This document shows positions 2,485 to 60,694 of a DNA stretch of 60,694 nucleotides, piece after piece. The translations under genes were made by a program, and so were the position numbers. A model generated the notes under the pieces. The model searched no databases, was not told the origin of the DNA, and saw only the letters and a list, made by a program, of their open reading frames with translations. Position 1 is the stretch's first letter; every line of letters begins with the position of its first letter. Origin of the DNA: a virus; IMG/VR virus record IMGVR_UViG_3300026774_000001, positions 1 to 60,694 of that record; one strand, 5' to 3'.

Positions 2485-2510
2485 CGGGAGCCCTTCGGGG
2501 CTCCCGTTTC
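2485..2510 (+). terminator. stem-loop cgggagcc-cttc-ggggctcccg + TTT
   Basis: GC stem followed by tttc. Confidence 0.55.
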
Positions 2511-2570
2511 AAGACAGAGAGAATCCCCGCGCGAGGCCAGTCGCCGGGGTTTGGACGAACAGACTGGAGT

Positions 2571-3053
2571 ATGCTCGACATGAACAATGATACCAGCTAC
2601 CACGATGATATGACAGACGACGTACTAGAGGAACGTTTCTGGGCGAAGGTCGACGCTTCCGGTGATTGCTGGGAATGGACAGCGGCGCTAGATCGCGGCT
2701 ACGGAATCTTCAACACGGACAGTCGTACTGAATACGCACATAGATATTCTTGGGAGACGTTGGTGGGTGTAATACCTATCAACAAACATCTGGACCATCT
2801 ATGCCGAAACAAACGTTGCGTGAACCCTGATCACCTGGAACCGGTGACAAACCAGGAGAACACGAAAAGGGGCGCGGCTGCGAGCGTACAGCGAAACCGT
2901 GCGCGCAGACAGACGCACTGCAAGATGAATCACGAGTTCACTGAGAAAAACACGCACATCAATACGAACGGCGCTCGCATCTGTCGAGAATGTCACCGCA
3001 ACCGGACTAGGGCGTTCAGGGACAAAAGACGGAAGGACAACAAAGATGCTTGA
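2571..3053 (+). CDS. HNH homing endonuclease (160 aa)
   Basis: YAHRYSWE...LDHLCRNKRCVNPDHLEPVTNQENTKR = HNH_3 pattern. Confidence 0.85.
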   Translation: MLDMNNDTSYHDDMTDDVLEERFWAKVDASGDCWEWTAALDRGYGIFNTDSRTEYAHRYSWETLVGVIPINKHLDHLCRNKRCVNPDHLEPVTNQENTKRGAAASVQRNRARRQTHCKMNHEFTEKNTHINTNGARICRECHRNRTRAFRDKRRKDNKDA

Positions 3054-4863
3054 AGGCACGAAACTTCACTTGGTAGACAACTGGGAGGACGCTACCAAAT
3101 TCATGGATTGGGTAGCTGGACTCAATACGGAACGCATTGCCTTCGACACCGAGGGTGAGGGCCTAAATGTCCGTAAGGATAAGGTTCGTCTGATTCAGTT
3201 CGGTGACCGGGAACAGGGCTGGGCTCTGCCCGTAGATCGTTGGCTCGGTATAGCTACCGAGGTGTTCGACCGATGGGCCGCGAGTGGTCGTCGCTTCGTA
3301 GGCCACAATGCCCGATATGACGCGGGAATGCTGAAAAAGCATGGTATCAACATCCCGACGCACCTCATTGACGACACGATGATGCTCGCAGCGGTGGCAA
3401 ATCCGTCAGTCCCACTCGGACTCAAATCCCAATCGGCACGACACATTGACCCCCGCGCCGCTGTGCTCCAGGGACAACTTGACGAGGTCATGCGTTCCAG
3501 CGGCAAGACATGGAAAGACATCCCCATCACCGCGGATGGACCATTTTCCACATACTGGATTTACGGCGCACTAGATGCCATCATTACCAATCGACTATGG
3601 GACCACCACGCGCCTGATGTATTCGCGAATGCGCCCAAATCCTACGACCTGGAAATCAGCGCTGGGTGGATGGCTTCCCGAATGGAGGCGGCCGGAGTCG
3701 AGTGCGACCGCGAGTACACCGCTGCGCAGCAGGGAGAGTTCGCGGGGATGTATGACGACTTGACCGCACGCATCAGCGCTGAATACGGTGTAGATGCAGG
3801 CTCCAAGGATCAGGTTGTCGCGGTGCTTCTCAAGGACGGAGTCCAGTTGTCCAAGCGGACCGATGGCGGCGCGTTCTCCCTGGACAAGGAGGTGTTGGGA
3901 ACGGTTGACCACCCACTTGTACACATGATCGCGCAGCGTCGCAAGATCGAAAAACTCAGCTCGACATACCTTCGACGCTTTCTCGAAGCGAGTGAGGATG
4001 ATGGGCGTATCAGAGCGTCGATCAACACCATCGGGGGATCGGGCAAGAGCGTAGGCGAGTCGGGTGGTATGTTTGGGGTGAGAACGGGGCGTATGTCCCT
4101 TTCATCCCCGAATCTGCAGCAGCTTCCCCGCGGTGGAGACCCGCTGTCTTCCGTGATCCGCAACTGCATCGTTGCCGGGGAAGGTAAGACTCTGGTGTCT
4201 GTCGACTTCGACCAGGCAGAGTTGCGCGTCATGGCGCACCTGTCCAAGGACCCCGGACTTGCGGCGGCGTTCGCGTCCACGGAAGACTTTTTCACAACGC
4301 TGACCCGACGCATCTACCACGATCCGAGCATCGTCAAGAGCGACTGGCGTAGGCAGCTTACGAAGTCTTACGTGTTCGCCACGCTGTATGGAGCTGGTAA
4401 CGACAAGCTCGCTACCACCACGGGCGTGCCGCTGGGGGAGGTCGAGGACTTGCAACGGGAGTTCAACGCCGCCTATACGGGTGTGCCCGCGTTTCAGCAC
4501 GCAATTCAGCGCGTAGCCAAGCAGCGGCAGCGCGACGAAGGCATTGCTTACGTACGCTCTCCGTTCACGAATCGCAAGTTCGTGGGCGAGCAGGGAAAGG
4601 AATACAAGCTCGTCAATTTCATTATCCAGGGTACGCAGGCCGAACTTCTCAAGATGAAAATGCTTGAAGTCGACGCTGCAGGGCTGGGAGACGCGATGCG
4701 GCTCCCGATCCACGACGAAATCATCCTTGAGGTAGACGACGAAGACGTGCCTGAGGCAGTGCAGACGCTCCGTGACGTTATGAACGACTCCACGCTCCTC
4801 TCGGTGCCGATCACCGCAGGAGTTGCCATCGGAAAGAAATGGGGCGAAAAGCGTGACATCTAA
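3046..4863 (+). CDS. DNA polymerase I (family A) with 3'-5' exonuclease domain (605 aa)
   Basis: Exo I FDTEGEGL; motif A VDFDQAELRVMAH; motif B RRQLTKSYVFATLYG; motif C PIHDEIILEV. Confidence 0.95.
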   Translation: MLEGTKLHLVDNWEDATKFMDWVAGLNTERIAFDTEGEGLNVRKDKVRLIQFGDREQGWALPVDRWLGIATEVFDRWAASGRRFVGHNARYDAGMLKKHGINIPTHLIDDTMMLAAVANPSVPLGLKSQSARHIDPRAAVLQGQLDEVMRSSGKTWKDIPITADGPFSTYWIYGALDAIITNRLWDHHAPDVFANAPKSYDLEISAGWMASRMEAAGVECDREYTAAQQGEFAGMYDDLTARISAEYGVDAGSKDQVVAVLLKDGVQLSKRTDGGAFSLDKEVLGTVDHPLVHMIAQRRKIEKLSSTYLRRFLEASEDDGRIRASINTIGGSGKSVGESGGMFGVRTGRMSLSSPNLQQLPRGGDPLSSVIRNCIVAGEGKTLVSVDFDQAELRVMAHLSKDPGLAAAFASTEDFFTTLTRRIYHDPSIVKSDWRRQLTKSYVFATLYGAGNDKLATTTGVPLGEVEDLQREFNAAYTGVPAFQHAIQRVAKQRQRDEGIAYVRSPFTNRKFVGEQGKEYKLVNFIIQGTQAELLKMKMLEVDAAGLGDAMRLPIHDEIILEVDDEDVPEAVQTLRDVMNDSTLLSVPITAGVAIGKKWGEKRDI

Positions 4864-11911: not shown

Positions 11912-11984
11912 GCACCGTTAGCTCAATGGAACGAGCGGCTGTCTTACAAACAGCGGGTCGGGGGTTCGACTCCCTCACGGTGTA
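11912..11984 (+). tRNA. tRNA-Val (anticodon TAC)
   Basis: Hand-folded 73-nt cloverleaf: acceptor gcaccgt/acggtgt, D gctc-aatggaac-gagc, anticodon arm gctgt-cTTACaa-acagc, T-arm ggggg-ttcgact-ccctc; no encoded CCA. Confidence 0.85.
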
Positions 11985-12066
11985 CTAGGTTCCAGAGGAC
12001 GTAGCCGCTAAGTCGGTTGGCGTGGGGTCAACAAACGTGGATGTAGCGCACCACCTGGAACCGCTA

Positions 12067-12139
12067 GGGCTGTTAGCTCCAACGGTAGAGCATCTGCTTT
12101 GCAAGCAGAGGGTTGTCGGTTCGAATCCGACATGGTCCA
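12067..12139 (+). tRNA. tRNA-Ala (anticodon TGC)
   Basis: 73-nt cloverleaf: acceptor gggctgt/atggtcc with G3:U70 Ala identity pair, D gctc-caacggta-gagc, anticodon arm tctgc-tTTGCaa-gcaga, T-arm gtcgg-ttcgaat-ccgac. Confidence 0.88.
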
Positions 12140-12190
12140 CGCGGGGAGGTTGGGCGCGCTGTGCGTGTTCGGCGCTCCGCACTACAACAT

Positions 12191-12434: not shown

Positions 12435-13061
12435 ATGATGCGAACTTACCCAAAGATCCCCGGTCCGTACAAGCGACACACAGAGGGGCCGGACCGGAAC
12501 AAACTCATCATCGGCCGTTGGACCTCACCGGAACTCGGGGCGCTCGCCAAACTCGATTGGACCTGGACTGAAAAAGTGGACGGGACGAACATCCGCGTCC
12601 ACTGGGACGGACACAGAGTCACCTTCGGTGGTCGCACCGACAACGCCCAGATTCCCGCGAAGCTCATTGAAGTGCTGCGAGCCCTCTTCACGGAAGAGAT
12701 CTTTGAACAAACCTTCAACGACACCGAGGTCACGCTCTTCGGCGAGGGGTTCGGTTCAGGTATCCAGTCGGGCGGAATCTACCGATCAGACCAAGGGTTC
12801 GCACTCTTCGACGTTCTGATTGGGCAGTTCTGGCTCAAGCGTCAGGATGTTGTCGACGTAGCGAACAAGATGGGTATCGAGTACGTGCCGTTGAAGCTCA
12901 CGGCTCCGATCTCCGAAGCGATCGACTTCGTGAAGGCCGGTGTTGGTTCCGACTGGAACGACGCCAAGGCCGAGGGCCTGGTGGGTGTTGCTCCCGAAGG
13001 GCTGCTCTCCCGATCTGGTGAACGGATCATGGTCAAGATCAAACACAAAGACTTCCAGTAG
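12435..13061 (+). CDS. ATP-dependent RNA ligase-family nucleotidyltransferase (208 aa)
   Basis: Motif I EKVDGTN (KxDG), motif III LFGEGFG, motif IV AEGLVGV, motif V MVKIKHKDF. Confidence 0.75.
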   Translation: MMRTYPKIPGPYKRHTEGPDRNKLIIGRWTSPELGALAKLDWTWTEKVDGTNIRVHWDGHRVTFGGRTDNAQIPAKLIEVLRALFTEEIFEQTFNDTEVTLFGEGFGSGIQSGGIYRSDQGFALFDVLIGQFWLKRQDVVDVANKMGIEYVPLKLTAPISEAIDFVKAGVGSDWNDAKAEGLVGVAPEGLLSRSGERIMVKIKHKDFQ

Positions 13062-13108: not shown

Positions 13109-13109
13109 G

Positions 13110-13144: not shown

Positions 13145-14383
13145 ATGATGGAAGATTTCACGTCAACCCCCGAAGGCGCACTCCTGAGCGCGTGCGCGCT
13201 CGGCGCGCTCATGCTCGCGCTCATCCTCTGGCGCACGGCGCAGGGCGCGCGCGCACGCGCATCGGAGCGCGCACGCGCGTGGGCGGACATCAAGCGCCCC
13301 GAGTGGGAAGCGCGCGCGCAGCGCAAGGCAGACGCGCGCGCATCAGGCGCGCGCGCCGACGCGCGCTTGCGCATCACACTCTTGAGTGCGGTTGCGCTCG
13401 TCGCGCTCGCCGCAACGAACCTGAGTGCGCACGCCACGATCACCGCCATACAGCGCATCGGCCTCACCTCCGTTGACGCCGCGATCTCGGCTGTGATTGT
13501 CTTCGAAGCGTGGCTCGCGATCCTGGGCGCGCTGTCCCTGCGGCACATGACGCGCGGCGAAGGATTCAACCGGTACGAGGCCGGTGTTTGGACCATGGCA
13601 AGCCTTATGGGCACTATCGCCTGGTGGGGTGGTGGCAGCCCCATCTTCGCGCTGTGGCCCCTTCTCGCGGCTGTCGCGTGGCACGTGGTCATCACCTTTG
13701 GCAGGCCGCACAAGCCGTCCGCTCTGGTCGTCTGGTGGCGTATGAAGCGCGGCAAGGCGACCTCGCAGGACGCGAGCGAGGTTCTTACCGAACGGCTCAT
13801 CACGCTCATTGTCAACACGGCATACGCGGCCAACGTTGGGCCCAAGATCACGCGCGCGTTCTACAAGCGCGCATATGATCGCGCGTGGGCGCGCGCGGAT
13901 GCGCTCGGCATTCTCACGCCGGAAGTGCGCGCGCGCATCCAGACGCGCATCGCCGCGCGCTACGTCGGTGCGCGCGCGCTCGCTCCTGAAGCGGTTGCGC
14001 ACATGAATCCTTGGAATGAGCGCGCATCGATGAGCGCGCGCACGGGCAACGCGCGCGCAGTGCGTCCGGTGAGCGCGCCTCCCGAGCGCGCACTCGAAGC
14101 GAGCGCACATGTTCCCGACGACGCGCGCGCACTCACAGATGACGCGCACGCATCGGAAGAGGTGCGCGCGCCTAAGCGGACCAAGAATGCGCCCGCAAGG
14201 GATGATGTGCTTGCGGCGATCGACGCGCAAGACATCCCTGCGGAGGCCAAGGCGTGCATGAAGGAATTCGTGGTCACCACGGGTATGTTGCCCCAGCAGA
14301 AGTGGATTGCGAGCGCGACTGGCAAGTCCATCGGGCACGCGGGCAAGTGGCTCACGCCGGTTCGCAAGGCACTCGGGTACTAG
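13145..14383 (+). CDS. polytopic membrane protein, DUF2637-like (412 aa), Ala-Arg-Ala-rich soluble regions
   Basis: ATG 13145 with SD gaagga; about 5 TM helices between residues ~20 and ~200; synteny with FtsK-like ATPase as in actinomycete conjugative elements. Confidence 0.6.
   Translation: MMEDFTSTPEGALLSACALGALMLALILWRTAQGARARASERARAWADIKRPEWEARAQRKADARASGARADARLRITLLSAVALVALAATNLSAHATITAIQRIGLTSVDAAISAVIVFEAWLAILGALSLRHMTRGEGFNRYEAGVWTMASLMGTIAWWGGGSPIFALWPLLAAVAWHVVITFGRPHKPSALVVWWRMKRGKATSQDASEVLTERLITLIVNTAYAANVGPKITRAFYKRAYDRAWARADALGILTPEVRARIQTRIAARYVGARALAPEAVAHMNPWNERASMSARTGNARAVRPVSAPPERALEASAHVPDDARALTDDAHASEEVRAPKRTKNAPARDDVLAAIDAQDIPAEAKACMKEFVVTTGMLPQQKWIASATGKSIGHAGKWLTPVRKALGY
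13240..14175. repeat. array 1 of alternating-GC palindromic motifs (core GCGCGCGC)
   Basis: At least 12 occurrences of (GC)4/(CG)4, e.g. 13246, 13310, 13333, 13347, 13851, 13890, 13927, 13970, 14033, 14050, 14122, 14163; all inside CDS 13145..14383. Confidence 0.85.
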
Positions 14384-14393
14384 CGAGACAGCG

Positions 14394-14424
14394 CCCGGCA
14401 CACCCTTAGGGGAGGTGTGCCGGG
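14394..14424 (+). terminator. 11-bp stem-loop cccggcacacc / ggtgtgccggg
   Basis: Perfect stem 10 nt after stop 14383; no T tract. Confidence 0.45.
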
Positions 14425-14577
14425 ACCGTGCCAGCGGCACACCCGCTGGCACACCGAAAACCACGATTGACCTGCGGAAACACTGTTTCGGCACACCGGC
14501 ACAGTGTGCCGAGAGTACCGCTCACTAAGTGTTTTCGCAGGTCACCGCGACCCTAGGAACAACCCGCCTGGTGTGCC
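14397..14577. repeat. intergenic array of 8-mer GGCACACC (5 forward, 3 reverse copies)
   Basis: Forward 14397, 14436, 14448, 14490, 14498 (half); reverse 14414, 14504, 14570. Confidence 0.8.
14468..14544. repeat. 17-bp inverted repeat TGACCTGCGGAAACACT / AGTGTTTTCGCAGGTCA
   Basis: 16/17 complementary arms at 14468-14484 and 14528-14544, flanking palindrome ggcacaGtgtgcc. Confidence 0.8.
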
Positions 14578-14591
14578 GTGCCGGTCGGGTG

Positions 14592-14597
14592 TATAAT
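14592..14597 (+). promoter_or_regulatory. -10 box TATAAT
   Basis: Consensus hexamer 38 nt before ATG 14636; no clear -35. Confidence 0.4.
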
Positions 14598-14635
14598 TAA
14601 TGCAGACCTAAGATCGAGACGAAAGGATCAAAGAC

Positions 14636-15109
14636 ATGACTGACGTAGTCGCCATCGAATCCACCCTGGGGAACGGTGCTGCGGGGTTCGTTGCCCTGGT
14701 GCTGTTCGCCGTCGCATGGATCATCAACGAGAAAGCCAACGGGAACAAAGCGGGTGCCATCTTTGCGCTGGTGCTCGCACTCGCCGGGTCGTTCGTGCTG
14801 TACGCGTCCACCTGGTCAGAGACCTGGTGCGGCTGGATGGGGAGCATCCTCACCGGTATCGGGGACATGTTCGGCGCTGAGATGTCGCTACCGTTCATGT
14901 TCAGCATGGCCTGCGTCGCCGCGGTCTTCATCATCGCGGTTGACCTGGGCGTGAACGCTAAGGACAACCCCTGGGCTGTCGGGGCCCTCCTGGTCGCCCC
15001 TGTGGTCGCCCACGGTGCTTCGGGCATCATCGGGAGCATGGCGCATGGGTTCTTCGGGGGGATGGCCCTGGGAGTTATCGAAGCACTCAAGTCATTGACG
15101 GGTGCCTGA
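14636..15109 (+). CDS. Gly/Ala-rich polytopic membrane protein (157 aa)
   Basis: ORF track; SD gaaagga; 4-5 TM helices. Confidence 0.7.
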   Translation: MTDVVAIESTLGNGAAGFVALVLFAVAWIINEKANGNKAGAIFALVLALAGSFVLYASTWSETWCGWMGSILTGIGDMFGAEMSLPFMFSMACVAAVFIIAVDLGVNAKDNPWAVGALLVAPVVAHGASGIIGSMAHGFFGGMALGVIEALKSLTGA

Positions 15110-16952
15110 CATGACCGAGAACGTAGAGAACAAACCGAATGCGCTCGCGCGCACGGCGCGCACCTCGTGGGGTTACACCCTGCGGGGTGCGCGCGCGCTC
15201 GCCGAAGATGCGCGCGCATGGACGCGCGCGGAAGGAATCGAAGCGCACATTCGGGAAAAGGATGCGCGCGCAATCGAATCGCAGCACCAACGAGCGATGC
15301 GCGCGCATGCGCGCAACGCGAAACGCAGAGGTGCGCGCGCGATTCCTCCGGTGCGCGCGCATGCGTTCACCGACCTCGAAGTGAATGCGCGCGCATTCGG
15401 AACGCGCGCATTCCGATGCGCGCTCACTCTTGCCGCACCGGCGTGCGCGCTCATCGCTCCGCCATGGATGTGCGTTGAAGGCAACCCCGGCGCGCTCCTC
15501 GCGTGGCCCGCTGCGTACGCATACCTGGCGTGGCTTGGCTGGACGAACCGCGAAGATTCGGAGCTGTCTGAGGTTATCTCGGTGACCACGCTGCCGCAGG
15601 CACCTACCGAAGAGAAGACGCGTCTGTTCTCTCGGAACCGCGTCGAGACGGGACTCAAGCCCAACGCACAGGAGTCGGCGATCATCAACCGGATTCACAC
15701 TTGGGAGGTGAACGCAGCGGATCGCAAGCTGCATGAGGTGTTCCCCGGCTCGCCGATCATCGATGAGTCCGGCATACTCATCCCAATGGAGTTCGCAGGG
15801 CTGTGGACGCCCGCGAAGCTCGATAACCAGGTGGACCAACTGCGAGCACTGCTCGCGGTTCCCGATGAGGTCAAGACGCAAGTCAAGCCTGGCGGTACCG
15901 CTGACCGTGCGGTCCTGCGTATTCGCACGCGAGTGCGGGACTTGGACCTCACCTGGTCACCGGAGCGCAAAGGGCTCGGCCTCAATGCCGACACGGGCGA
16001 AGTCGTCAGTGTCGACGTGACCGACCGCCTCAGCGTCGCGGGCATGTCGGGAGCGGGCAAGTCCGTTGCGCTGCGCGTACTCATGGCGGAAGCGCTCGGG
16101 CTGCCAAACACCGCGCTGGTCATCATTGACCTTAAGGTGGAAGGTGCGCTCTGGGCGCATGTCGCGCGCGTCGAGTCCGAGGCAGACGGTATCCAGTCGG
16201 TCATTGACGACCTGGTGACCGAGATGAAGGAGCGCGAGGCGATCATGCGAACCGAAAGCCTGGACACTTGGGAGCCAACGCCTGAGCGTCCGCGCATCGT
16301 CGTTGTCGTTGACGAAGGGGCTGAGCTGATGTCCGAGGTCCCCGACTCCGTGACCGGCCTGCGTTCGATCGCGCGTCGTGCAAGGTCGGCAGAGATCCCG
16401 CTGTGGTGGGCCACGCAGAAGCCCACCGTGACCGGACCGGGCAAGGGACTCGACTCCGCGATTTCGGCTCAGCTCACCTCACAAGTGTGCATGGCCGTGT
16501 CCAGCCCGACCGAGGCGCGCAACGTCCTCGGAGAGGATGCCACCGCTAAGGGATGGCACGCGGAAGACCTGCTTAAGGGCGGGTGGTCGCTCGTGCGCGT
16601 GCAGGGTGAGGACCGAACCCCGGACCCTACCCGCGTGTGGCACATGACAAAGGAGGACGTGAAGGCTATCGCCCCGCGTTCCCCGTGGCGTCGGGCGAAG
16701 ACGCTGGCCCCCGTGGTCGATGCGAAAGACGCTCTGGTGGTCGCGTTGGACCTGTCCGAGGGATTGCAGGGTGTGTCTACGGTCCGTATCGGCGTTGCTC
16801 TCGGCGTCTCTGACGCTGAGGTGCACGTGCGTATGCGCGTGCACGGTGTCGATCCGGAACCCAACGCCTTCGCGATGGGCAACGGGGAGAAGGCCCGTGG
16901 ATACCGCAGAGATAAGCTTGAAGCAGCGTTCAACAGGAGGAATGACCGATGA
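15102..16952 (+). CDS. FtsK/SpoIIIE/TraB-like DNA translocase (616 aa)
   Basis: Walker A GMSGAGKS, Walker B IVVVVDEGAEL, two N-terminal TM helices, basic ARA-rich N-terminus, possible C-terminal wHTH; start GTG 15102 or ATG 15111. Confidence 0.85.
   Translation: MPDMTENVENKPNALARTARTSWGYTLRGARALAEDARAWTRAEGIEAHIREKDARAIESQHQRAMRAHARNAKRRGARAIPPVRAHAFTDLEVNARAFGTRAFRCALTLAAPACALIAPPWMCVEGNPGALLAWPAAYAYLAWLGWTNREDSELSEVISVTTLPQAPTEEKTRLFSRNRVETGLKPNAQESAIINRIHTWEVNAADRKLHEVFPGSPIIDESGILIPMEFAGLWTPAKLDNQVDQLRALLAVPDEVKTQVKPGGTADRAVLRIRTRVRDLDLTWSPERKGLGLNADTGEVVSVDVTDRLSVAGMSGAGKSVALRVLMAEALGLPNTALVIIDLKVEGALWAHVARVESEADGIQSVIDDLVTEMKEREAIMRTESLDTWEPTPERPRIVVVVDEGAELMSEVPDSVTGLRSIARRARSAEIPLWWATQKPTVTGPGKGLDSAISAQLTSQVCMAVSSPTEARNVLGEDATAKGWHAEDLLKGGWSLVRVQGEDRTPDPTRVWHMTKEDVKAIAPRSPWRRAKTLAPVVDAKDALVVALDLSEGLQGVSTVRIGVALGVSDAEVHVRMRVHGVDPEPNAFAMGNGEKARGYRRDKLEAAFNRRNDR
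15140..15455. repeat. array 2 of alternating-GC palindromes (ATGCGCGCGCAT family)
   Basis: About 10 copies: 15188, 15208-15219 ATGCGCGCGCAT, 15222, 15262, 15297-15308 ATGCGCGCGCAT, 15332, 15351, 15383-15398 GAATGCGCGCGCATTC (16-bp perfect palindrome), 15403. Confidence 0.85.
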
Positions 16953-25535: not shown

Positions 25536-26410
25536 TTATTTCCCGCGTTTCCTGCCGCTCACTCCCGGTGCGGTCAACGTCGCCATGGCCGCTTTCGAAT
25601 TGAAGTTGTTCGTCTTGTCGTCCCCGTACCATGCGGGTTTCGGAGCGCGCTTGCGCTCCGGTCTGCCGTTCCGCGGAGCCGCGATTGCCTTCGCAACTGC
25701 GGGACCTGCTTTCTGCATGTCCCACTCCGCCACCTTCTCAGCGATCACCGCATCGAATTTGTCTTTGTCCTCGGTTGAAGCGTTGCGCGTGGCAAAGTAG
25801 TACACCAAGTTGAGCCATTGATCCCAAGGCAGTTGCAAGTGGTCGACGTTGCGTGAAGCGCACCAACCGTCGAAGGTGGGCCACACCTGATCCGATGTGG
25901 CCCAATCCTCTAGGGAGATTGCGGCAACGTAATGCCTTTTCCCAGTGCTTCACCGATCACCCAAGTGAGAATTTCGTAGAACGCCCCGATGTCGATCGCA
26001 TCGTATTCGCCATCGAATCGACGCTTGAAGCGGCCGAGCGATTCGGACTCGAAGACTTCGGCAAGCAGCTTGAAGATCGGCTCAGTTGCATCACGGTCAA
26101 CGTTTTCATCCGCGGCGAGTGACTGAATTTCGATCGCCTTACGGTAGACCGCAAGCGCAGCAGGACTGACGGGTTCAGCCCCATCAGGGGAAACGAGTGC
26201 CAGAATTTCACCCGCGAGACGAGAGAACTCATCGACACGCGGATCCCTCATCGTTTCTGCGGGTGCCTGAGCTGCTGCCTGCATTTCCCCGGCAAGACGG
26301 GAAAGCTCGGTCATCCGCCCAGCGGGAACACTCGCCTTAAGGCTGAACACCTCATCGTCGATGTCGAATTCGATGGGTTCTTTCCGCGTGGTAAAGCTCT
26401 TACGAGTCAT
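25536..26410 (-). CDS. tail assembly chaperone G-T fusion via -1 programmed frameshift
   Basis: ORF 25536..25886 lies in the -1 frame relative to 25910..26410 and that frame is open from the slippery site at 25943. Confidence 0.7.
25910..26410 (-). CDS. tail assembly chaperone (G-like, 166 aa)
   Basis: Position immediately upstream of tape measure; acidic protein. Confidence 0.75.
   Translation of the reverse strand: MTRKSFTTRKEPIEFDIDDEVFSLKASVPAGRMTELSRLAGEMQAAAQAPAETMRDPRVDEFSRLAGEILALVSPDGAEPVSPAALAVYRKAIEIQSLAADENVDRDATEPIFKLLAEVFESESLGRFKRRFDGEYDAIDIGAFYEILTWVIGEALGKGITLPQSP
25937..25943 (-). promoter_or_regulatory. -1 frameshift slippery heptamer G GGA AAA
   Basis: Minus strand reads ctG GGA AAA ggc, 9 codons before the G stop. 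Confidence 0.7.
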
Positions 26411-52533: not shown

Positions 52534-52551
52534 CACACACACACACACACA
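52534..52551. repeat. (CA)9 dinucleotide microsatellite
   Basis: cacacacacacacacaca directly after stop 52532. Confidence 0.95.
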
Positions 52552-52554
52552 CCA

Positions 52555-60034: not shown

Positions 60035-60610
60035 ATGGATGTGTACCGAGATGATGAGGCGCGAGAGGCTGCCACCAAGGGCTGGGGGGACGAACCCCTG
60101 GACGTGGTTTCGGACGAGTTCGCGGAGTTCGCAGCGGAAGAGTGCGAATTCGACGACCCCACCGTGAAGGACTTCACCGTTTCCGGGCAGCCGTTCACTG
60201 GGCGTGTACTGGGATTCGGTTCCTCCCGCCACCAGAACGGCACCCACAACGGGCACATGCCCGGTACGGTGCTGCCCCGCGGGCAGACGTGCTCCGCGTG
60301 CCGGTGGGCCGATGTGGCGATCATGGGCGTGAACACTGACGACAACGTTCCTATGTTCCTCGTACTGACCATCGGCAAGTCCACGATCCCCGGCGAGGAC
60401 CAGCGGGTGTCGACCACGTGGACGCCCGACGCTCTTGAAGTCCTCAAGTCCCTGTACGTCAAGAGCAAGAACGGGCACCCCCCGAAGATCCCGATCCCGA
60501 ACGCCACCGCGTTCCGCGCCGCCGCGGCTGTCGACAAGTCGATTGATCGCGTGTTGGAGCGGTTCGAGGACATGGTGCCGCTGGTGCCGGAAGATGACAT
60601 CTTCGGGTGA
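60035..60610 (+). CDS. hypothetical protein (191 aa); 3' end lies in the terminal repeat
   Basis: ATG 60035 with SD gaggag; stop 60608-60610 equals nt 13-15. Confidence 0.65.
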   Translation: MDVYRDDEAREAATKGWGDEPLDVVSDEFAEFAAEECEFDDPTVKDFTVSGQPFTGRVLGFGSSRHQNGTHNGHMPGTVLPRGQTCSACRWADVAIMGVNTDDNVPMFLVLTIGKSTIPGEDQRVSTTWTPDALEVLKSLYVKSKNGHPPKIPIPNATAFRAAAAVDKSIDRVLERFEDMVPLVPEDDIFG

Positions 60611-60694
60611 CACAGGCCCCGACTTGCACGCAACGGCGCACCATGATAGATTTGACAGGTCTCACCAAGCTTTCGAGCTACGGGGGCCGGAAAC
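60596..60694. repeat. 99-bp terminal direct repeat, right copy (= 1..99)
   Basis: Exact identity with nt 1-99. Confidence 0.95.

Follow-up and report, generated by a model that had tools for sequence, protein, structure and literature searches.

The conjugative plasmids of Streptomyces provide the closest described systems for the DNA element considered here, a set of arrays of alternating-GC tracts overprinted on the genes of a predicted TraB/FtsK-type DNA translocation module in the phage sequence IMGVR_UViG_3300026774_000001 of the IMG/VR collection (positions 1 to 60,694, the whole stretch that was analysed, hereafter the window). TraB, an FtsK/SpoIIIE-type membrane translocase that pumps double-stranded DNA, reads repeats of 8 base pairs (bp) via a winged helix-turn-helix (HTH) domain at its C-terminus (PMC4447253). 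These repeats make up clt, which in pJV1 has nine copies of CCGCACA[C/G][C/G] and in pWTY27 has four copies of TGACACC and reaches 16 bp into traA (PMC3583192). A different kind of site, sps, is a 12-mer palindrome, CGTCACGTGACG, within the coding sequence of spdA, whose product, SpdA, binds it; the palindrome forces a peptide motif, SRDD/E, to recur, and when it was recoded away with synonymous codons the stability of the plasmid was affected (PMC4170104).

We compare the window with these systems in terms of the sites that they use and where the sites lie. First of all, the window shares with the TraB–clt systems of pSVH1, pJV1 and pWTY27 an FtsK/SpoIIIE-type translocase, whose motor domain is found in the gene here called gB, and a cluster of repeats, GGCACAC(C), that is the counterpart of the 7–9-bp repeat clusters located beside or partly inside a plasmid gene. 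It differs from them in that the clt-like feature is provided by these intergenic 8-mers and not by the GC arrays, which are palindromic, variable in length, present in about 40 copies and placed inside two coding sequences, and in that the setting is a 60-kilobase (kb) tailed-phage genome and not a plasmid. Second, the arrays share with SpdA–sps of pIJ101 and other plasmids a palindrome whose nucleotide sequence is conserved within the coding sequence of a spread-module gene, and sps would, by this analogy, be the closest precedent for the GC-array layer. However, sps is a defined 12-mer in two to three copies, whereas the window tracts are alternating GC of 6–18 nucleotides (nt), and searches of Pfam and PHROG with gA, gM and gB, the three genes of the module, gave no SpdA-like family. 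Third, arrays of short protein-binding sites, repeated or palindromic, that are overprinted on tolerant coding sequence are familiar from the lambda ori iterons inside gene O and the P1 pac hexamers inside pacA; these are replication and packaging genes, whereas in the window the terminase gene is 30 kb away and no replication initiator adjoins the arrays. Finally, the gp70–gp71 module of Streptomyces phage YDN12 (Woodruffvirus) likewise has a membrane protein with a C-terminal HTH, intergenic repeats (GGAACGG) and an FtsK-like protein with an Arg-rich N-terminus, the latter 33–38% identical to gB in YDN12 and in phages Xkcd426 and Mischief19, which were compared via annotation tables and tract counts only. 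YDN12 has no gM gene, and these cultured phage modules, at 70% GC, have no arrays, with 1–4 tracts per kb against 20–39 per kb in the array-bearing parts of the window.

Our analysis makes it very probable that the tracts are a selected, or otherwise actively maintained, feature of the nucleotide sequence. The role that we prefer for them, as cis-acting DNA sites read by a protein, is put forward tentatively.

Dense arrays of alternating-GC tracts

The 8-mer (GC)4, GCGCGCGC, occurs 25 times in the window, and 24 of these copies fall within 13245-14171 and 15189-15394; dinucleotide shuffles give 7.4 +/- 3.1 copies, and none of 100 shuffles reaches 25. Its counterpart (CG)4, CGCGCGCG, occurs 17 times, with 13 copies within the same two stretches. 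A count of tracts that do not overlap and are 8 nt or longer gives 12 for gA and 8 for gB; a preliminary description had estimated about 12 and about 10 copies of the 8-mers by eye. The same description had seen only two copies outside the module (16165 and 38495), whereas the count gives four such loci (16163, 31982, 38497 and 56028). Tracts of at least 6 nt reach 20 per kb in gA and, within the first 360 nt of gB, 39 per kb, against 0.94 per kb in the remainder of the window. The dense clustering described at the outset is thereby confirmed, but the first of the two arrays then proposed consists of two blocks (arrays 1 and 2 in Table 1), which are split by the transmembrane-coding part of gA. 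Together with array 3 at the start of gB they comprise about 40 tracts in about 1.4 kb of arrays, spread over two genes.

All tracts are built on the core GCGCGC and range from 6 to 18 nt in length, some 40–50% of them being bare 6–7-mers, and most alternating runs are 8–12 nt long; in array 1, alternating purine-pyrimidine runs reach 18 nt (13245-13262). Longer palindromes are ATGCGCGCGCAT at 15208, 15297 and 15385, GTGCGCGCGCAT at 15351 and GAATGCGCGCGCATTC, a perfect palindrome of 16 bp, at 15383-15398; those that had been reported beforehand (15208, 15297, 15351 and 15383-15398) were all found in place. Shorter extended forms recur five times (TGCGCGCGCA), 12 times (GCGCGCGCA) and 10 times (TGCGCGCGC), with every copy inside the arrays. 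No helical or other periodic spacing of the tracts was found.

Where the base that flanks a core on the 3' side is a free third codon position, it is A in 12 of 13 window cases, and mostly A in both clades of relatives (see below), and where it is free on the 5' side it is T in 7 of 11 cases. Furthermore, GCGCGCA is followed by a pyrimidine in 16 of 20 cases, and TGCGCGC is preceded by a purine in all 14. These choices extend the purine-pyrimidine alternation and often make palindromes such as TGCGCGCGCA; alternation and palindromy are not separable with these data. Of the alternating purine-pyrimidine tracts with a length of 10 nt or more, 28 fall within the 1.4 kb of arrays and 54 within the remaining 59 kb; 13 of those in the arrays are at least 12 nt long, the longest measuring 19 nt, with most tracts at 6–11 nt.

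The longest alternating run of the window is GTGCACGTGCGTATGCGCGTGCACG, at the 3' end of gB (Table 1), where it provides the codons for EVHVRMRVHGV in the gB C-terminus. It is kept, either as such or as a CAC>CAT variant that preserves the alternation, in 10 of the 11 other relatives of the near clade, while the flanking codons vary; in the eleventh, L011, the counterpart is GTGCACGCACGCATGCGCAT and alternation is lost after 20 nt. An alternating tract of such length arises in 57 of 2000 codon permutations, and this run may belong to the same signal as the arrays.

All array tracts lie within translated sequence and none lies in the 252-bp intergenic region between gA and gM of the window. In some far-clade relatives a single GCGCGCG tract, read by eye, is present in the gA–gM intergenic region.

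Peptide and codon bias, or a signal in the DNA

Two null models were used to ask how much of the pattern follows from the encoded proteins. In the main one, synonymous codons were resampled with the usage of 28 long window genes, leaving the proteins unchanged; in the other, which is conservative, synonymous codons were permuted within each array segment. Under the main null, gA has 26 8-mers against 3.5 +/- 2.9 expected and gB 12 against 2.0 +/- 2.1, values reached in at most 1 of 2000 resamplings, and GCGCGC occurs 38 times against 6.8 expected in gA and 25 times against 5.3 expected in gB. The excess is also seen in single arrays, with 15 8-mers in array 2 against 1.4 +/- 1.7 expected and 22 GCGCGC in array 3 against 3.7 +/- 2.2 expected (0 of 2000 in both). 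Resampling with window codon usage gives five- to tenfold fewer motifs; the preliminary description had named a codon-preserving shuffle that reproduces the density as an outcome against its reading. Permutation within segments, on the other hand, does match part of the density, for example in the N-terminal segment of gA (14.4 against 11 observed), because the codon usage of the arrays is already extreme. What goes beyond all, or nearly all, of these permutations is GCGCGC, its extended forms and the coverage by alternating runs in arrays 2 and 3: the five copies of TGCGCGCGCA in array 3 compare with 0.19 expected from resampling and 1.15 from permutation (0 of 2000), and alternating runs cover 124 nt of array 2 against 87 +/- 14 nt under permutation (1 of 2000).

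The extreme usage concerns Arg and Ala codons. Within the arrays, Arg is CGC in 40 of 48 cases and Ala is GCG or GCA in 72 of 78, against 33% and 55% window-wide, and in array 1 alone the figures are 12 of 12 and 19 of 20. The dipeptide Ala-Arg is spelled GCGCGC in 20 of 23 cases in the arrays and in 10 of 87 elsewhere, the latter being the rate predicted by independent codon choice; Arg-Ala is spelled CGCGC[AG] in 26 of 28 against 14 of 88. The choice also depends on position, since Ala before Arg is GCG (20 of 23) and Ala after Arg is GCA or GCG equally often, which is what continuing or closing an alternating run needs. The phage has a tRNA-Ala(UGC) gene 1 kb upstream of gA; a tRNA-Ala(UGC) reads GCA and GCG, the Ala codons of the arrays, and CGC and CGT are read by one tRNA. 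Selection at the level of tRNAs is argued against, and rejected as the main cause, because CGC is used far more than CGT, which hardly occurs in the arrays, and because the Ala codon is position dependent. Likewise rejected is a conserved antisense open reading frame (ORF) under the arrays, as antisense stops number from 0 to 9 among the relatives.

With respect to reading phase, GCGCGC is spread about evenly over the three codon positions (12/11/15 in gA and 10/6/9 in gB). The preliminary description had argued for a nucleotide motif from a single 12-mer read in two phases, and both readings are correct, with 15208 at codon position 2 (GAT GCG CGC GCA TGG) and 15297 at position 1 (ATG CGC GCG CAT); on its own, however, a phase difference is a weak argument, because all three phases of (GC)n encode Ala or Arg. 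The claim that it was meant to support, namely that the nucleotide motif and not only the peptide is maintained, is borne out on other grounds: codon resampling falls short of the density, the codon bias is confined to the arrays both in the window and in every relative, and relatives vary both peptide and phase. The influence of the DNA pattern on the peptide is at least as great as the reverse.

Conservation among relatives

Protein and locus searches place the window in a large uncultured family of contigs of about 60 kb, from which 24 IMG/VR loci were compared, with gB protein identities of 58–95% and two main clades, near and far. In all 24, clusters of the 8-mers are found at three shared locations when positions are counted from the start of gB, with array 1 at -1860 to -1745 and array 3 at +30 to +280. 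Each relative has 18–26 tracts in the gA segments and 11–17 in the gB segment, against 4–11 and 3–7 expected from its own non-array codon usage, and in every one of them the observed number is at least the maximum of 300 simulations. Pooled over the relatives, Arg is CGC in 79–94% of cases in the arrays and in 38–48% in the rest of the same genes. Between the clades, codon identity at conserved Ala and Arg residues is 0.74–0.75 in the arrays against 0.39–0.52 elsewhere, and for the other amino acids there is no excess in gA and a small one in gB (0.51 against 0.49).

In the codon alignment the tracts stay at homologous positions while the peptide and the phase differ. At one such position the peptides are KRRGARA (ggtGCGCGCGCG), NRRAHSA (agGCGCGCGCacaGCGCGC) and KSKRARTR (aaGCGCGCGCGC), and at another they are AMRAHAR, EARAR and YARAQA. 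The keeping of tracts through changing peptides is the clearest sign that the DNA pattern is retained, and it is the opposite of the outcome that the preliminary description had considered, in which relatives would keep the Ala-Arg-Ala peptides and lose the palindromes. Conservation is not absolute. Because third-position variability in the tract cores is only about 25% below that elsewhere, it is mainly the tract density and the approximate position that are held, and individual tract positions turn over. Among the core variants in relatives, C>T and G>A occur in similar numbers (22 vs 20; 19 vs 13), so that no strand asymmetry is seen, and there is a slight excess of transitions; the power of this comparison is low. 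Array 2 is the best-conserved DNA of the module, at about 80% nucleotide identity to the far clade.

The homologous modules compared outside this family have no arrays. The YDN12 module has 70% GC and yet only 2–3 tracts per kb, and phages Xkcd426, Mischief19 and JustBecause, together with six distant IMG/VR relatives (25–41% identity; 66–74% GC), have 0.5–4 tracts per kb. The homologous N-terminus of YDN12 gp71 is also Arg/Ala-rich. Because homologous modules share the Arg/Ala-rich peptide without the arrays, the peptide character is older than the arrays, and the alternating-GC overprint is an innovation of this phage family. No description of such arrays was found in the literature searched.

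The module, its intergenic repeats and its mosaicism

The arrays lie in a module of three co-oriented genes, gA, gM and gB, defined from the ORF list (Table 1).

Table 1. Position of the arrays, genes and other features of the translocase module in the window.
Feature	Position	Strand	Description
gA	13148..14383	+	Membrane protein of 411 residues; possible alternative starts at 13109 or 13145
Array 1, N-terminal block of gA	13188..13366		9 alternating-GC tracts of 6-10 nt
Array 2, C-terminal block of gA	13849..14171		14 tracts, over helices 230-286 and the disordered linker
gA-gM intergenic region, clt/operator-like	14384..14635		252 bp; 7 GGCACAC(C) in both orientations; no GC tracts
gM	14636..15109	+	Hydrophobic protein of 157 residues; no Arg, no GC tracts
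gB	15111..16952	+	FtsK/SpoIIIE (TraB-like) DNA translocase of 613 residues
Array 3, N-terminal block of gB	15146..15450		14 tracts, including five TGCGCGCGCA and the 16-bp palindrome
Alternating purine-pyrimidine tract GTGCACGTGCGTATGCGCGTGCACG	16821..16845		25 nt, 7-bp inverted arms, 3' end of gB

The gA protein combines helices rich in Arg and Ala with a transmembrane bundle, a linker that is disordered and an HTH-like domain at the C-terminus. An AlphaFold2 model (mean predicted local distance difference test score 66) has helices across residues 8–286, in which the first hydrophobic helix runs on into Arg-Ala-rich helices to about residue 100, followed by a helical bundle to about residue 185 and cytoplasmic helices at 192–286; residues 282–346 are disordered and residues 351–409 form a confident four-helix HTH-like domain. 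The protein has no match in Pfam or PHROG, a structure search gave nothing significant, the only matches being non-significant ones to sigma region 4 or LexA-like folds, and the gA family is restricted to this uncultured phage group. In gB, an Arg-Ala-rich N-terminus is followed by hydrophobic segments (at residues ~105-150, read from the translation by eye, N-terminal to the motor), the motor domain (PF01580, E = 1.7e-12, residues 296-385) and a C-terminal HTH-like tail, which was read by eye in the last 100 residues, where there is no Pfam match. Over residues 27-543, gB matches the phage FtsK-like family phrog_17958 (E = 9e-56); it is 37% identical to YDN12 gp71 and, against actinomycete FtsK-domain proteins, 34–37% identical over the whole alignment and 39–45% in the best local alignment. 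Judged from their sequences, gA and gB appear to be the two large membrane proteins of a TraB/FtsK-type module for the translocation of double-stranded DNA. Directly upstream of gA lie genes for tRNA-Val(UAC) and tRNA-Ala(UGC) (11912-12140) and for an RNA ligase (12435-13061), and in the Streptomyces phage JustBecause an FtsK-like gene, tRNAs and an RNA ligase likewise adjoin one another.

Both clades conserve the gA–gM intergenic region, which in the window contains 7 of the 14 copies of GGCACAC. One pair of GGCACAC(C) forms a hairpin directly after gA, and one copy overlaps the -35 element of a promoter-like pair, TTGACC / TGTATAAT, seen by eye; a scan for promoter and terminator patterns called no promoter in the region. 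By analogy with the plasmid systems, the GGCACAC(C) cluster is probably the actual clt or operator of the module and supplies its loading or operator sites, and the GC arrays are an extra layer on both sides of it. In YDN12, the gap between gp70 and gp71 (L025 5056-5379) has about eight GGAACGG repeats upstream of the FtsK-like gene, and these are the counterpart of the GGCACAC(C) cluster.

The module is a mosaic, in which gM and the HTH-like tail of gA are swapped as cassettes between phages that share 90–98% identity in the arrays and the intergenic region. In gM (14634-15106) the window is 45–58% identical in nucleotide sequence to its closest relatives L001, L002, L003 and L006, with flanks at 90–98%, while another relative, L010, has the window type of gM. 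The gA HTH-like tail (14169-14342) is a second exchangeable block, with about 50% nucleotide identity where the arrays have more than 90%. The tail cassette starts at about 14110-14168, which is the end of array 2, and the right junction of gM, at 15107-15160, is the start of array 3; the left junction of gM is in the intergenic region.

Candidate functions of the arrays

Our preferred, and tentative, reading is that the tracts are cis-acting DNA sites read by a protein. We favour it because of the palindromic core, the density of tracts beside a translocase gene, the precedents of sps and clt, and the HTH-like domains encoded in the module. Acting in cis, the tracts would provide the double-stranded DNA of the phage with many palindromic sites of low information content, densely clustered and flanking the clt/operator-like GGCACAC(C) repeats. 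A DNA-binding protein would read them, candidates being gA through its HTH-like tail, gB and a factor of the host, and its binding would mark or organize these 3.5 kb for the pump, or would serve to control the module. SpdA acting on sps inside spdA, and TraB acting on the clt repeats, would follow the same logic in the Streptomyces conjugative plasmids. The tracts are overprinted on structurally tolerant Arg-Ala-rich segments, namely juxtamembrane helices and the disordered linker.

Several points weigh against a protein reader. First of all, no such protein has been identified, and the structure search returned no significant match. Second, the variable length of the tracts, from 6 to 18 nt, and their irregular spacing are unusual for a defined operator. 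Third, the flank rule is one of alternation and not of a fixed base, which suits a structural property equally well. Fourth, the GGCACAC(C) cluster is a more conventional set of sites for the DNA-binding domains of the module, and the gA HTH-like tail behaves as a cassette, diverging to about half identity where the arrays are strongly conserved. Finally, the tracts occur only in transcribed and translated sequence, which a role at the RNA level fits equally, and a local mutational bias that perfects GC quasi-palindromes would mimic purifying selection.

A structural element in the DNA is a possible, though rather unlikely, alternative. The alternation itself would then be selected, as B–Z-prone or unusually deformable DNA that absorbs or reports the negative supercoiling caused by transcription or by the pump, with no sequence-specific reader. 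The flank preferences and the concentration of alternating tracts of at least 10 nt in the arrays are in its favour, as are the freely varying tract length, the alternating coverage of 124 nt against 77–87 nt under within-segment permutation (at most 1 of 2000) and the run at 16821-16845, with its alternation-preserving variants. The tracts also resemble known Z-DNA tracts in being CG-rich and perfectly alternating, with flanks that extend the alternation to 19–25 nt; a difference is that no Z-DNA-binding protein was seen among the window proteins scanned. On the other hand, a B–Z junction costs about 5 kcal/mol and short tracts need extreme supercoiling to flip, and the tracts for which a flip at physiological supercoiling has been shown are longer than most of those in the arrays, nearly half of which are the bare 6–7-mers. 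The flank preference also yields palindromes, so that a site for a dimeric protein is equally served, and no role of Z-DNA in phages was found in the literature searched. The more specific proposal that Z-prone or deformable arrays, placed astride a clt-like loading site, are selected to take up or signal torsional stress is unlikely; such stress would come from transcription or from the FtsK/TraB-type pump, and the arrays may, for example, gate the loading of the pump or the expression of the module. To our knowledge, no phage element with conserved purine-pyrimidine alternation overprinted on coding sequence has been described, none having been found in the literature searched.

A signal in the messenger RNA (mRNA) seems to us possible but on the whole improbable. 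Here the self-complementary GCGCGC, of which any two copies can pair, would fold the gA and gB mRNA very strongly and throttle or pace the translation of two membrane proteins that are potentially toxic, or protect the mRNA. The restriction of the window tracts to translated sequence agrees with this, and the first 381 nt of gB fold at -199 kcal/mol (z = -3.6 against dinucleotide shuffles). Furthermore, unregulated traB is toxic in Streptomyces plasmids, which is the Kil-Kor relationship (PMC4447253). Strong folding, however, is an automatic consequence of the motif and does not count as independent evidence, covariation is uninformative for a self-complementary motif, and the near-equal numbers of C>T and G>A variants in the cores leave no signature of G-U wobble pairs. 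No Rfam family scored above noise, and array 2 sits 700-1050 nt into gA, an odd place for a throttle on translation.

That the arrays are a neutral by-product, in which required Arg-Ala peptides combine with local mutation (template switching that makes quasi-palindromes perfect, or short-patch conversion among the numerous near-identical copies) to drive codons to GCGCGC, is quite unlikely. The Arg/Ala-rich N-terminus of YDN12 gp71 does indicate that the peptide bias predates the arrays, tract positions turn over with core third positions only moderately less variable than elsewhere, and palindromes that are perfect over as much as 16 bp occur. The same dipeptides elsewhere in the genome and in the non-array parts of gA and gB, on the other hand, show no such drift, and homologues of higher GC content with Arg/Ala-rich N-termini lack arrays. 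Tract numbers are steady in both segments down to 58% identity, and no other DNA of the module is as well conserved as array 2.

We regard it as decidedly unlikely that the arrays serve as recombination linkers, that is, as patches of homology or recombinogenic sequence that promote swaps of the gM and gA-tail cassettes. The sharp fall in identity within gM relative to its flanks, the window-type gM of L010 and the coincidence of the gM right junction with array 3 and of the gA tail junction with the end of array 2 point in this direction. Yet conservation beside variable cassettes may only mark the places at which homologous recombination is possible, and so is possibly a consequence and not a function, array 1 borders no cassette, and the left junction of gM lies outside the arrays, in the intergenic region.

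A target for restriction-modification or methylation, in which clustered GCGCGC, GCGC or CGCG would be read by a host or phage enzyme, had been among the roles offered in the preliminary description and is very unlikely. GCGCGC is a 6-bp palindrome of known restriction specificity (BssHII-type), and (GC)4 is mildly depleted elsewhere in the window (1 against 3.7–6 expected). There is no strong avoidance, however, as GCGCGC outside gA and gB occurs 38 times against 42–57 expected; no methyltransferase or restriction gene was found among the roughly 45 window proteins scanned, a set that leaves out many small ORFs; and more than 60 cleavable sites in 1.4 kb would bring no obvious benefit.

Finally, that the arrays follow purely from Ala-Arg-Ala peptides and a genome-wide GC codon bias is extremely improbable and is rejected as far as computation allows, for although the Arg-Ala-rich segments are conserved as peptides and within-segment permutation recovers part of the density, resampling with window usage does not, the codon bias and dipeptide spelling are array-confined within the same genes and position-specific, and relatives retain the tracts through peptide change.

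The phage genome and arrays in other contigs

The window has a GC content of about 60% and carries a 99-bp exact direct repeat at its two ends (1-99 and 60596-60694), because of which it is most likely a complete phage genome that was circularly assembled. It encodes a family A DNA polymerase, an SNF2 helicase, a PD-(D/E)XK nuclease, an AAA_24 ATPase and an HNH endonuclease; a PrimPol, an SprT-like protein, an RNA ligase and WhiB are also encoded, as are the large terminase (43345-45075) and a Mu-F-like head protein. A search for near-identical DNA in cultured phages found none, with distant protein matches to Streptomyces phages only, the nearest being those of the genus Woodruffvirus (33–38% identity in the translocase protein). 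The phage group is an uncultured actinophage-like family with genomes of about 60 kb. A scan of genome contigs for the host gave a single distant Streptomyces match (47% over 240 residues), and because of the WhiB gene and the TraB-like module the host is likely, as judged from these genes, to be an actinomycete.

Two further features of the window stand apart from the module. At 25853-25951, on the minus strand and within the tail-gene region, ARAGORN predicts a 'tRNA-Pyl' of 99 nt with anticodon CTA (amber-suppressor type), which could be a false positive or a suppressor tRNA. A (CA)n microsatellite of 19 nt, CACACACACACACACACAC, lies at 52534-52552.

A collection-wide scan for triplets of (GC)4 does not support a general rule, as loci with several arrays belong mostly to this family, and the others (L032, L082, L063, L098 and L042) are unrelated, with no family match for the genes at their dense arrays. 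L032, a viral contig of 59% GC that encodes a lambda-type portal, carries some 40 alternating-GC tracts within 1.5 kb (2500-4050), largely within an Arg-Ala-rich ORF of 398 residues (2863-4059, minus strand), and it may be an independent case of the same phenomenon. The high-GC viral contigs L082 (8100-9250), L063 (1380-2330), L098 (3600-4120) and L042 (9650-9817) have apparently non-coding arrays of palindromes of the GGCGCGCC type, spaced by about 15–17 bp, which adjoin a conserved ORF in L082 and L063; L042 has a tandem repeat with a unit of 10–12 nt of the GTGCGCGCGG type. The GGCGCGCC-type arrays are a different motif from the tracts of the window.

Implications

The finding, which is statistically robust, extends what is known of cis elements within the DNA-transfer coding sequences of actinomycetes to a much denser form, with another sequence, in a phage family. 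In what seems to be a clean example from nature, a second code that is not for protein overlies coding sequence: the Arg and Ala codons of the arrays are nearly fixed over 1.4 kb, and the pattern persists in a family whose protein identities go down to 58%. Stretches of low-complexity Ala-Arg sequence in phage proteins can be by-products of signals at the DNA level, and recoding such genes with synonymous codons is not necessarily neutral. An experimental template for recoding the sites is offered by the work on sps (PMC4170104). The module that hosts the arrays most resembles the machinery by which mycelial actinomycetes conjugate and spread double-stranded DNA. Should they serve the pump as cis sites or as structural elements, the tracts would provide a handle on why phages carry TraB/FtsK-like translocases and on how such motors choose their DNA.

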